Under the pieces are notes generated by a model. That model worked only from the letters and a program-made list of their open reading frames with translations, was not told the DNA's origin and did not search any database. Positions 12,161 to 17,915 of a DNA stretch of 64,000 nt are shown here, piece after piece. The position numbers and the translations under genes were made by a program. Source of the stretch: Camelus dromedarius (lineage: Eukaryota); assembly GCF_036321535.1 (NCBI RefSeq), contig NC_087436.1, positions 53,446,001-53,510,000 of the forward strand. The letters run 5' to 3'. The stretch's first letter is position 1, and the number at the start of each line of letters is the position of its first letter.

Positions 12161-13094
12161 GTAAATTACCAAACAGATGGGTGAGCAGTTTGAAAAACCC
12201 TGATGATGATTCTATTTTCATTGGACGTTAAAAACTAACCAGTTTGTCTTTTCTGACACTCTCCACATCATCAGAAGTACTCAATGGGCTTAAAAGATTA
12301 AATAGTGACCATTTGGAGAAAAGCCTCCTACTCCATTTCCATAATGTACATGGCCATGCACTATTCTAATAAGAGTGATGGTATGAATTGACACAAATTT
12401 TTCATTTTCACAAACAATTAATTGTTAACTCAAGTAGGGCTGCTCCCTAGAGAAAGAGATTTCTACAGTGTAATGCCAGGTTCCCTTAGTACAATATAGC
12501 CCTGGGTCTGGAATCATTATGGTCTGCAATTGACACAGAACGCCCACTCCAGGCCCTTCATTATCAGAATCAGGTGATTCTGAAAATATGAGCAGTGAGT
12601 GGCAGGTGTCAACTCTTATTCTCTTGCTTTGTTATGGGAGTCCTATAAGTGCATTCTGATCCACAATTTTAGCTATATTCTGTTCCCTTGGCATAAACCC
12701 TAAGGACTGATTTATAGAAATTCCCAACTGGGTGATCCCTAGTAACTGGGGAGTAAGACTAGGATCAATAATTTTGGTTAAAATAATCAACCAGAGCATT
12801 GGTCAATAGAAGGAAGGACAAAACACCAGGAACAGTGTTGCATAGAGAAGATGCAAAAAGGCAACAAAAAGAAAAGACATCACAAAAGAGACAGGGTAAA
12901 AACATATAGTTAAATGACAGGAGTTTGAAACAGGGGATAAATGTTGCAAAAGAAGAAAACAGATCCATGGTGTGAGGACCCAGGATACTTCCTGGGGAAG
13001 AAACCTTAGAAAATATCCCTACTGACATGAACTCCCTAACTTGCAAAGGTTTTAGCTGCAATATCAAAAAGAAGTTCAATAAAAAGAAAAGAAA

Positions 13095-16000
13095 TGATCC
13101 CTGCTTGGTGTGGTGAGGATGATTTTCTTTGCAATTAAGGAGCAGACTCTTGTTTTCACTCTGAGTACCAGGAGGTTCAAAGGTTTGGAAAGAGATAGCT
13201 TAGCAGAAAAGGAATGTGGGCAGGAGAAATTGAATCTCTTGCATGAATTTCTGCAAAAAAGAAATAAAGAATCAATTATGTTACTTTATGTAAATTACAT
13301 AAAGAAAAAGTATTAGTGGAGGGCTACCTGGCTAAAATCAAATCCCTTTTAAATAAAGATTCGTCCTTGGAGAATGGAGCTCATGCTTTCAATTGGGAAG
13401 GGAATGGATGTCTAGAAAACAAGCGGTAAAGACCTCTGACTGAGAATAGCAGAGGAAACAAGTCCCCCAAACCCATTTCCACACTTTGCATGCCCAGAAG
13501 AAGCAAGTCTGATGGAGAAAGAGAGTCTCAAGTCTCATCTAGGTCCAGGAATATAAGGCAAGCTACCGGGCAGAACACCATCACATTTCATTTAGCAAGG
13601 AAACCTGAGAAAGAACTTGAAAGACCAAAACTGGATGATTCTCTCAATGAAGAAGAAAAAGACCAGGAAGCAAAGAGACATAAAGTCACTTCCAGAGAAC
13701 CAACTGCTAGACCATTCCCTGCAGAAGAACCAGAAAGAGTAAAACCATAAACATACAAGAAAGAAGAATGAAGGGAAGGAAAAGAAGAAAAGAGACTCAG
13801 AAGTCAAACCAAAATAGAACCTAAATAGAAGTCTAAGGAGGATGCAAGACCAGGAGTTCAGGTTGAAATGGGTAGAGGAGATGAGAAAGATAAAAAGAGG
13901 CACAGAAGACAACCCAAAGATTCTAGCTGCCAGAGACCTGAAGAAAAAGAATCTGAAAGAGTAAAACCACAAGTTTCTGATTAGAAAGATGAGGATGAAA
14001 AGTTCTGGAGACTGCAAGGCCAAGATCAAAGTGACAGCAGGGAGGAGAAGAGATGCAAAACTACATTCAAAGAACCAACTGAGAAAAAAAATGGCTCAAA
14101 CCAAAACAGCTGTGTCCTCCAAGACCCATCCTCTGACGTGCATTCAGTGCAGACAATATCTGGATAACACTGAACTAAAATATGAACAGCATTCCCCTGA
14201 TGCAATGGATGAAATACAGTTGTTGACAAATGAGAGAATGTCTATCTTCAATGTCAAAGAATCCGGCTTTGAGAGGCTCTTCCTCAACCAAACTGACGTG
14301 CTTCAGCATGTACTATAAACACAATCACCAGTGCCTGATCAACACTAGCCTCATTAAGAAGAAAGTCCAACTCTTCTGGTTCAGCAAAATCAATACATGA
14401 TGATGGCCCATCTCTTGAAAGTGATTTAATGGCAAAATTCTTGGTCCCATAAATAAATGGTGGATCACTGATTTTAAAAGAAGTGAAAAGGCTCTCATTG
14501 GCTTCAGCACCTCATCTGCCAAATATATTCTGATAGATCCCAATACACATTGATGTCCAGCATGATGCAGGAGATCTACTTAAGACAGTAGAGTTCCTGC
14601 AGAACAACCCTGACTCAACCTATAAAGACCTGATCAATAAGATTAAGGCCACTGTTCCTCCTGTGCTCATCCTGAATCAATTCACTGAGGAGTCTCTCCT
14701 TTGGCATGCCCAGTTTTTGGTGGGACAAGTAAAGAGCTATGATTAGTCTGGGGCTAGTGACAAGTGACCCATCTTCCTGATCTGCTGCATGAGAGACCTG
14801 ATCAAGTTGGTGGGGACCACCCTGGGAAAGAGGCAAGCTGAAAGACTTCAGACCATTGGGCATTCTGCCAAGAAGAAAGACAAAGACCTCACAAAAGCCA
14901 TCACTATCAATCTGGTCTACCAGATCTTTGACACTTTCTTCACAGAGCAAATTGAAATGGAGACTAAGAATGCCTTTAAATGCTGGCTGTGTGGCATCTG
15001 CGAGTTTTGTCAACAGCCCAAATGTAGAAAGTGTGAAGCCTATAAGGATATGGTTAAATTTGGTGGTAGGGAACAGAGCAAACAGGCTTCCTGAGAGAAG
15101 TGTTCCATTTTTTAATCCATGGCCATGAAGGATGAAGATGATGATGAAGTTGATGACAAAATCCCAGAGAAAAAGTGCATCAGGGGAAGGAAAAGAAACA
15201 GAGCAAGAATCTGATATGTTGGGTTAGAGAAGTCATCAAGACTGCTGGGGGAACTATATTCAATATCTCGTAGTAACCTATAGTGAAAAAGAATACGAAA
15301 ACAAATATATGTATGTATATGTATGACTGAACTATTATGCAGTACACCAGAAATTGACACAACATTGTAAACTAACTATAGTTCAATTAAAAAAAAATAA
15401 AAGAATACTGGGAAGAAGAGTTACTATAAGAAGGTATGCATTGCCTCAGAAACCCTGGAAGTGGGGAACTGTGTCTCTGTTATTCCAAATGATTCCTGAA
15501 AACCATCCTCACGGCACTGCAGGAGGACAGCAGCAAAAGGCAGAGCTTGCATACCCACTGGTTCTGTGCTGGGATAGACAGGGTCCTCCGGGCCACATCA
15601 GATCCCCCCTGGAGCAGCTCTTGTTAGATGAACGTGAGGATGTGCAGCTTTTCACACACTCACAGCAAAGTTCCGTCGGAAAACTGGGCCTTGGAGGGAG
15701 GCATGGATTCTGAGACCTTGATAACAGAGGGTAATGGGAAGACTTGTTTCTCCCAGCTGTGACATGAACAAGACCATGCAAGATTTGAGAACCCCCCAAA
15801 ACTCAGTCGATGGAGAAAAAGCATAAATTCTGTATAAGCTGTGTCTGTCTGGCTGAAATGAGGCAAAAAGAAATTCCCAGGATCATGGAGCAGCTTGAGG
15901 ACCTTGATGGCCAGGGTCTCTTCAGCTCAGCCACCAAGACTGGCATCCAGTATCGAGCGGGCAACAGCATGCATCTCCTCCCTGAGGCCTTCTCATTGGA

Positions 16001-16765
16001 CCAGTCCTGTAAAATATCCACAGAAGGAGCCTGTGGATGAAGATATGTACCCTAAACACTACGAGAACTATTCCAACTATATCTAAGGCATGCCACAAGT
16101 TGGACGCCCCTGGGCCATACCAAATTGGCCACATAAAAGATCTTCTGAATCAATAAGAGCGCCCAACACAACACACAGCAAGATCAGACAACAGGTTCTA
16201 CAAGTCAGCAAAGGCCTCTGTTCTTGCAGGAGGCAGCACTCCTACAGGAGGCTGTGCCTGAAAAGAGGGTTGTAACATAGCACACATAGTGTTTTAAGAG
16301 TTACATAGAGGTGGCTGTTTTTCCAAGTGTTTCTGATTATTTGGTGCATACTGACATTGACTATATTTCATAGCCTTTGCTCTTAGGCCTCTATTTTAAA
16401 GTTGCAGAGCTCTTTCTACAAAACAAATCCATAAGCAGAAGTCCAGAGTGTGACAAAAGCAGGGATGGAATGTTGTGGGCTCCGCCTGAGGCACCCCCAA
16501 GAGAACATCAAGTTCTATTTATGACAGTCTGTGATCTGCTCCTTCCCATGAGTCCGTCCCTACTCTCAGTCCTCCTGCTCTTTCCAGGCCCCTCCTCCTT
16601 TTTCTAGAGTTTCTCTCTGTCCACACTTTCCCCAAGGTCTTGGCTTCACTCAGTCTTTTTTGGTGATCCTAATAGTGGTTAGGAGCTAACCTAAAACTAA
16701 TCCATACAGATAGATACAAAGTTGCTTTACTTCTTAGTTACTATACATCAAAGATTTTCTGAAGA
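13095..16765 (+). pseudogene. DNMT1: Processed (retro) pseudogene of DNA (cytosine-5)-methyltransferase 1, N-terminal regulatory part only, inside ADH4 intron 8
   Basis: Intronless, frameshifted and stop-ridden homology 13175-16203: [36 protein letters not shown] region, [32 protein letters not shown]1, [12 protein letters not shown], start of BAH2. Outer limits set from a candidate target-site duplication AAAAAGAAAAGAAA (13081-13094 / 16766-16779), which is less certain than the homology. Confidence 0.93.
15250..15400 (+). mobile_element. 5'-truncated LINE-1 3' tail nested in the DNMT1 pseudogene
   Basis: ggaactatattcaatatctcgtagtaacctat...cagaaattgacacaacattgtaaactaactatagttcaattaaaaaaaa; TSD AAGACTGCTGGG (15238-15249) / AAGAATACTGGG (15401-15412); interrupts DNMT1 [12 protein letters not shown]. 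Confidence 0.88.
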
Positions 16766-17915
16766 AAAAAGAAAAGAAAAAATACACATTATTTTTAAAG
16801 CTACACAAAGTAACTTAGGGCATAAGCCCCAGAGTATCTTGCAAAATCTCAATATCCCCATAAGACTACTCCTCAAGTTAAGAGTTATGTTGGGGTTTGG
16901 GGCCTTAGATCCTGGTTCTCATAGCTCCTCCACCACTACCCTTTTTCCCCTAGAGTTCTCCCTCATGGAATATACCCATAAGGACTGCCATGTGGTAGCC
17001 AAATGAAAAATGTTGCATTACCTTATTAATAGCTGGGCAAGCCTCCCATACTATCCCAAATAGGCCAGGTAATCAGCAGTAGAATGGAGGTTGAGGGTTA
17101 GACACCTGAATGAGGCTTCCTACTTCCCCCTGGTGCACTGAGAAGACCATCTGACTGCCCACACAGCTGGACAGGTGGCAACAGAGAAGGCAGAGGATGG
17201 GCCTTCCCAGGGATACTGACCATACAGGAAGCACAACTGAGGACTTATCCTCCTGCCACACCAACTGCATAAAAGCAAGGAAGTGGAAGGCGCACAACAC
17301 CCAGCTGGCCTGTTAAGGTGCAGTGACCCTGACTCATGTCATAGGTATGTATAGCTCCAGGTCCTGCAGGAAGAAAACAGTTATGCACAACAACCTGCTG
17401 ATGCCAGGGATTCCCCAGCTCCAGCAGTAAGGTCCGAGATAAGAAATTCTCTGTCCTTGAGGCTTATCCCCCTTTTTGCTTCTACATGTTAAAGGGGTGA
17501 TCCAGGAGCAGAAATTTTTGAGTTCTCTGAAAGTAGCAACCCAACACACCAACCACTCCCTCTTTTGATGCCAATTTGCCCTAAGCTACAGGAGAGCCAA
17601 GAGCAGTGACTGTTTCAAGTCAAAAATCTCACTACACCGGCGGCAGGCTCTACTTCTCTATAGCACCACTGGGCAACAAGGACCTTGACCAGAGTCAAGT
17701 GTGGGTTCCCAATTTTCGCCCAGCTTACTAACACCATGTGTAAAGTATTATTAATGTCATGGATGGATGACAAGATAAAGAAACTAGACAACTAGACTTA
17801 GCAAAGTGAAATATCTATAAAGAAACATTAAAACAAAAAAATAAAAATTATTTGTGGATTTTGGTTAAACTTATCATGAAAATTATACTGATTACTGTTT
17901 TATTATTATTAACAG

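Follow-up and report, generated by a model that had tools for sequence, protein, structure and literature searches.

Which RNA gave rise to the copy of DNMT1 that the dromedary (Camelus dromedarius) carries in intron 8 of ADH4, and why does that copy run from a non-somatic first exon to a point inside an intron? We examined this in a window of 64,000 nucleotides (nt) from assembly GCF_036321535.1 (contig NC_087436.1, positions 53,446,001 to 53,510,000, forward strand), and coordinates without a contig name are positions in that window. In our preferred account, to which we give a probability of roughly 0.72, the copy is a processed pseudogene made by L1 from an oocyte-type DNMT1 RNA in an early artiodactyl ancestor, and its 3′ end was a one-off. 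An oocyte-type template is well supported by the exons that the copy appears to preserve, and the 3′ end is the least certain part. The copy and its immediate surroundings are laid out as follows, with parental coordinates referring to dromedary DNMT1 on contig C27.

12161-17915, + strand: ADH4 intron 8, the host and last intron, with GT...AG ends (ADH4 exons 2-9 were read).
13081-13094, + strand: left target-site duplication, 14 bp, an A-rich L1-type site and an exact copy of the right one.
13095-13174, + strand: copy of an upstream (1o-type) first exon, spliced to exon 2, 84% identical to G000:C27:6252460-6252542.
13175-14002, + strand: DNMT1 exons 2-12, spliced and decayed, with 76-97% identity per exon.
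14003-14041, + strand: 39-nt in-frame cassette at the exon 12/13 junction, apparently the orthologue of a ruminant 13-residue exon and a piece of a long terminal repeat (LTR)-type repeat.
14042-15240, + strand: DNMT1 exons 13-23 (RFTS and CXXC regions), decayed, with a zf-CXXC match at E 4e-7.
15238-15412, + strand: 3′-end insertion of a presumed L1, at about 15250-15400, with its own 12-bp duplication; L1 ends in the vicinity of the parent locus resemble it at 72-81%.
15413-16203, + strand: DNMT1 exons 24-28 (BAH1 and the first part of BAH2), decayed.
16204-16764, + strand: continuation past the unspliced exon-28 donor for 493 of the 843 nt of parent intron 28, 77% identical to G000:C27:6288411-6288903.
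16765, + strand: one extra A, the most that could remain of a tail.
16766-16779, + strand: right target-site duplication, 14 bp, exact.

The DNMT1 pseudogene itself occupies positions 13095-16764 on the + strand, inside ADH4 intron 8 and in the same sense as ADH4, a host named from the best solved match of one upstream host exon. When the genome's own DNA was searched with the window, with only the best candidates scored, the search placed the parent DNMT1 gene on contig C27 and turned up no further long copy. When dromedary isoform X1 was mapped there, 40 coding exons resulted, bounded by AG/GT, and their translation was exact. On this map, the copy starts with the upstream exon, continues through exons 2-28, and takes in 493 nt from the 5′ end of parent intron 28. 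Intron sequence is missing from every one of the 27 exon-exon junctions, of which 24 are exact and three have short deletions. The reading frame is broken by 11 stops in 903 aligned codons, and 31 of the 44 exonic indels shift it. Second codon positions have changed at a rate of 13% relative to the parent, a mark of neutral decay, and 80 of the 108 parental CpGs have become TG, CA, or TA, with six retained. The copy is a dead DNMT1 processed pseudogene.

The 14-bp word at its borders is present only twice in the window, as the two duplications, and among 20,000 random position pairs with this spacing, one gave a comparable match, probably the true site itself. L1 reverse transcription is the likely route by which the copy was made. 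Somatic exon 1 and exons 29-40 scored at shuffle level and had no BLAST match in the window; exon 28 ends at codon 1022, and the methylase domain (residues 1140-1593) is encoded by exons 29-40. A first-pass annotation, made from the letters of this stretch, had described an intronless DNMT1 homology in the sense of ADH4, with stops, frameshifts, and CpG decay (including altered KRRRC codons at 14978-14992), a candidate 14-bp duplication, and a missing catalytic 3′ part, and on all of these points it was right. Within the span that it described, however, 15250-15400 is not DNMT1 but the later L1 insertion. A full-length copy whose 3′ part was deleted afterwards was rejected because the intron sequence abuts the duplication directly.

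The first of the departures from somatic mRNA is the 5′ exon. Its parental counterpart (L016:2460-2542) ends at a GT donor and sits 7.7 kb above the somatic ATG (C27 6260203), whose exon 1 lies in a CpG island. An initiator-like word lies only a few bases from the 5′ end of the retrocopy, and a TATA-like word stands at -26; both motifs were picked once the sequence had been seen. Two TAATTR-type words together with a CACGTG inside 100 nt form a combination that is rare among 2,332 windows, but these promoter words carry little weight because the choice was post hoc and the window grid missed the promoter. Of 97 N-termini compared, the best match (score 35 vs. 15 for the next) is a homologous peptide at the start of a mole isoform model. 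A protein search with the 5′ frame of the retrocopy, a weak search, gave no match. Passages of PMC7216732 describe, for pig and cow, a DNMT1 start that is oocyte-specific and lies upstream of the somatic promoter, and similar passages cover human (PMC6117921) and mouse (PMC2266903). From its position and these models, we infer that the upstream exon is exon 1o, which would place the RNA in an oocyte or early embryo. Public runs are listed for the upstream-exon stretch (11 of 24 rows, with one RNA run at a share of 0.12), but they play no part in this argument.

Alternatively, the template could have come from testis, or from some cell other than the oocyte, in which the same exon is used. According to passages of PMC4772013 on their expression, retrocopies are frequently associated with the testis. 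However, the spermatocyte DNMT1 exon 1p lies downstream of the somatic exon and not upstream of it, and the upstream start, in the published passages on pig, cow, human, and mouse, belongs to the oocyte and early embryo. We therefore regard a non-oocyte source as distinctly improbable and retain exon 1o as the likely identity of the copy's first exon.

The camel exon resembles that of DNMT1o in mouse, human, pig, and cow, as far as the available passages describe it, in that this first exon is short, precedes the CpG-island exon 1 by several kb, and is spliced to exon 2. It differs in what it may encode. The DNMT1o protein starts at a downstream Met and is about 118 residues shorter, and one dromedary isoform model, P0123, has its start at the corresponding Met. 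By contrast, in-frame ATGs stand at nt 22 and nt 25 of the parental upstream exon, the one at nt 25 being common to the retrocopy (13119-13121), and these could restore the DMAP1-binding N-terminus. If they are used, a camelid oocyte-type protein would keep a DMAP1-binding domain that mouse and human DNMT1o lacks. A further difference is that the known DNMT1o transcript reaches the full 3′ end.

The upstream exon has been retroposed elsewhere as well. A second insertion of ~101 nt lies on the minus strand of contig C8 (G000:C8:60735746-60735646; L045) and consists of the DNMT1 upstream exon and the first bases of exon 2, not of intron, with about the same 5′ point as the window copy. It is followed by an A-rich stretch (11 of 15 A) and carries a 14-bp duplication with two mismatches. 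This insertion shows what would be the same RNA retroposed a second time, cut at the 3′ side and A-tailed at a quite different point. That upstream-exon RNA was inserted twice, at separate places, suggests that retrotransposition took place in the female germ line or the early embryo. Relative to the parent, the C8 insertion and the window copy have one base change at the beginning of exon 2 in common. The surroundings of the C8 insertion look like an old element that we take to be L1.

The second departure is the cassette at the exon 12/13 junction. Its frame is open over 13 residues, and eight of the 13 are identical, on the protein level at which we compared them, to an insert at the same junction in RefSeq isoform models of cattle, zebu, goat, and deer; the ruminant exon is likewise 39 nt long and in frame. 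Among the 227 proteins that were fetched, 93 had a readable exon 12/13 junction, and four of these, all ruminant, carried the 13-residue insert. None of the 11 camelid isoforms listed has it. A protein search with the cassette frame, again a weak one, gave no match. We presume that the ruminant exon is the one named Dnmt1(12b), which in sheep is reported (Taylor et al. 2009) to be an oocyte, embryo, and fetal exon.

At the nucleotide level, the cassette belongs to a repeat family. A 26-letter pattern taken from it, with up to three mismatches allowed, matched 97 times in the genome and 0 times in the control. In 14 other repeat copies that we fetched, likeness begins just after a pyrimidine run and an AG and fades ~39 nt on at a donor-like point, and these splice-like ends lay outside the 26-letter search pattern. 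The family is presumably an MLT1-type MaLR LTR. Members of the same LTR-type family also lie near DNMT1, just downstream (G000:C27:6300489-6300844) and about 40 kb upstream (6220545-6220642).

A repeat-derived piece with no match at the parent locus could, in principle, be DNA that entered the pseudogene after it had formed. However, the cassette coincides precisely with the exon 12/13 junction, its start follows the acceptor AG of the repeat, its end is donor-like, and no duplication of its own flanks it. The ruminant isoforms, with an exon of the same place and length and eight of 13 residues in common, in effect refute a late insertion, which we consider next to impossible. The simplest reading of these comparisons is that the cassette was a spliced exon of the ancestral gene, kept in ruminants and later deleted from camelids.

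Evidence from the parent locus bears on that loss. Local alignment of the cassette to intron 12 and 50 kb of the gene stayed within the shuffle range. No trace of the repeat was found in parent intron 12, where scores reached 22-33 against shuffle maxima of 25-35; the positive control, a repeat copy elsewhere near the gene, scored well at 55-165. Camel intron 12 (G000:C27:6276275-6276906) is only 632 nt long and without the cassette repeat. Its shortness and the missing repeat suggest a lineage-specific deletion. The first-pass annotation had expected the unusual blocks to find matches at the parent locus. This held for the 5′ exon, exons 2-28, and intron 28 but not for the cassette, and the reading of a non-somatic template nevertheless stands, since the camel gene most likely lost this exon later.

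The upstream exon and the cassette also go together in ruminant models. A deer isoform model combines the insert with a start at the DNMT1o-type Met, and a zebu model combines it with a non-somatic N-terminus. With a first exon at the 1o position and a cassette that matches the ruminant exon, the non-somatic template proposed at first pass holds up well, as an oocyte-type RNA. The three independent departures from somatic mRNA that were then claimed in this one molecule (5′ exon, cassette, and 3′ read-through) are likewise all real, but the first two are known, linked features and not independent.

Several comparisons bear on when the copy was made. At 12 sites where camel and alpaca share a derived residue relative to other mammals, the retrocopy has the ancestral state at 10, the camelid state at one, and another state at one. 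At 10 artiodactyl-derived sites, it is ancestral at six, derived at two, and other at two, and one of the two derived states could be CpG decay. Trees place the retrocopy outside crown artiodactyls, though without support, and the second of them was computed without seven of 23 rows. Between retrocopy and parent, the exons show a non-CpG distance of 0.145 and the intron part one of 0.252. With neutral change at about 2e-9 per site per year, the intron distance gives an age of roughly 60 million years. Of these comparisons, the diagnostic residues suggest an origin before the artiodactyl radiation, probably on the artiodactyl stem.

The third departure, the 3′ end, is the hardest to explain. 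The retrocopy ends 350 nt short of exon 29, and the parental frame meets a stop 12 residues into intron 28. In the 300 nt that precede the end of the retrocopy, and in the corresponding 280 nt of the parent, none of 13 polyadenylation [poly(A)] hexamer variants occurs, although an ancestral weak signal may have stood there. Between the intron sequence and the right duplication is only one extra A, merged with the A-rich duplication, and the copy is old.

The first-pass annotation had seen in this truncation a real isoform. If so, oocytes would make, by regulated intronic polyadenylation, a DNMT1 of ~1,035 residues with RFTS, CXXC, and BAH1 and without the catalytic domain. The end of the copy is built like a composite terminal exon, with all upstream introns spliced, the last donor read through, and a stop shortly after it, and a catalytically truncated Dnmt1 is still chromatin-bound in mouse embryos, according to part of PMC7470951. 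However, the missing hexamers do not fit this proposal. Four public runs of unspecified tissue, mapped on intron 28, gave four contigs and four reads over its whole length, without splice joints. Three of the four contigs cross the retrocopy end point, and there is no pile-up of ends, although contigs cannot show ends and two of the runs are RNA by guess only. These data lend the truncated isoform no support. Of the 154 proteins that include the end of exon 28, six continue into the intron, all of them short single-exon frames, and no multi-exon protein does so. The isoform claim is not supported, and we consider a regulated intronic end quite unlikely.

One further hint came from a canid-like frame (P0043 / P0219 / P0216) of 787 residues, a single frame on 10-kb contigs that is 94% identical to dog DNMT1. 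It clusters with a raccoon-dog gene model and stops three residues before the end of exon 28. However, the hint is ambiguous, as the gene-model mate keeps a weak likeness beyond exon 28. The frame itself is likely a younger canid DNMT1 retrocopy. A metagenome scan with it returned one distant locus at 51% identity, which was not used.

A stronger form of the isoform proposal starts from the oocytes of early, and perhaps also living, artiodactyls. In these cells a DNMT1 RNA that combines exon 1o with the LTR exon would stop in intron 28, and its product, a catalytically dead but chromatin-binding DNMT1, would act as a brake on maintenance methylation in the early embryo, with the pseudogene as its fossil. 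If the intron-28 end were still used, the product would be a natural catalytically dead DNMT1. The evidence does not favour this, and we hold the brake to be a very doubtful idea.

Alternatively, the RNA may never have ended in intron 28. L1 could have primed internally on a full-length pre-mRNA that retained this intron, leaving a tailless copy. Such copies, 5′-complete, 3′-truncated, almost tail-less, and flanked by duplications at both sides, form a class that includes mRNAs in the portion of PMC5322556 at hand, and the window copy shares these traits, with a single extra A ahead of the duplication. Intron-28 sequence occurs in the RNA-type runs, and the parent has an A-rich word resembling the target 24 nt beyond the end. 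However, the class requires pairing between target and RNA at the break, and none is seen there in the modern parent, which continues pyrimidine-rich and not A-rich. The window copy also differs from the class in being 3.5 kb long and ending in an intron, and the A-rich tail of the C8 insertion (11 of 15 A) points to RNA that was cut and tailed. Internal priming on an intact pre-mRNA therefore seems unlikely to us, although it deserves a hearing.

We favour a one-off premature end over a maintained isoform because the C8 insertion was cut at a different point, and because of the intron-28 data and the missing poly(A) signal. This remains the least certain step in the sequence of events that we propose. 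As the copy shows, the template RNA began in the upstream first exon, spliced to exon 2, and carried the 39-nt LTR-derived exon between exons 12 and 13, with all other introns up to exon 28 removed and an end 493 nt into intron 28. The upstream exon being probably exon 1o, such an RNA would have been made in an oocyte or early embryo. The extra exon was presumably part of the gene at that time, and ruminants would have kept it while camelid intron 12 lost it. Most tentatively, a nascent, incompletely spliced RNA may have been cut and tailed early in intron 28. After insertion, the copy decayed neutrally and later received an L1 fragment.

Some observations weigh against parts of this account. 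No empty site was found among the flank matches in this single genome. With no surviving poly(A) tract or signal, the cut-and-tail step is one that we supply. The ruminant exon, reportedly restricted to oocyte and embryo (Taylor et al. 2009), stands in one cattle model (P0146) together with a somatic N-terminus. Regarding age, the approximately unbiased (AU) test does not reject a clade of camelids and the copy (p 0.075), one of the 12 camelid-derived sites is common to the retrocopy, and the retrocopy branch is long. Lastly, we identified exon 1o by position and isoform models, not by alignment to a published 1o sequence, and the in-frame ATGs of the camel upstream exon contrast with the N-terminally shortened DNMT1o described in part of PMC6117921.

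Processed pseudogenes made by L1 are reportedly archives of transcript isoforms (Shemesh et al. 2006). The same idea is cited in passages of PMC4772013 and PMC5470649. The DNMT1 copy resembles such archives in being intron-less, in having a target-site duplication, and in keeping exons missing from the usual mRNA. It differs in being 5′-complete and 3′-truncated with a retained intron end, and in recording an exon that its parent gene has lost; in contrast to the ruminant situation, only the pseudogene keeps this exon in the camel. In the open-access literature that we searched, which leaves subscription journals mostly uncovered, there was no report of a DNMT1 retrocopy, of the origin of the ruminant exon, or of DNMT1 intronic polyadenylation in oocytes. 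As far as that literature shows, the retrocopy, the LTR origin of the exon, its pre-ruminant age, and its loss in camelids are new, whereas retrocopies as isoform archives, DNMT1o, and the annotated ruminant exon were already known. Genome sequence alone can here date and explain a piece of DNMT1 biology: the 13-residue exon of ruminants stems from an LTR-type repeat, formed part of the oocyte-type RNA already in the ancestry of camels, and has since disappeared from the gene in the camel.

The later insertion at about 15250-15400 carries a separate record. Its 12-bp duplication spans the exon 23/24 junction, already spliced, and the fragment entered after the retrocopy had formed; its label as L1 is our presumption. 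Beyond the duplications, neither flank (12440-13080 and 16780-17740) has further copies in this genome, each matching itself alone, and 13 reading frames in the flanks had no Pfam match of note. Both flanks have more G+C than the remaining ADH4 introns and resemble a single old element.

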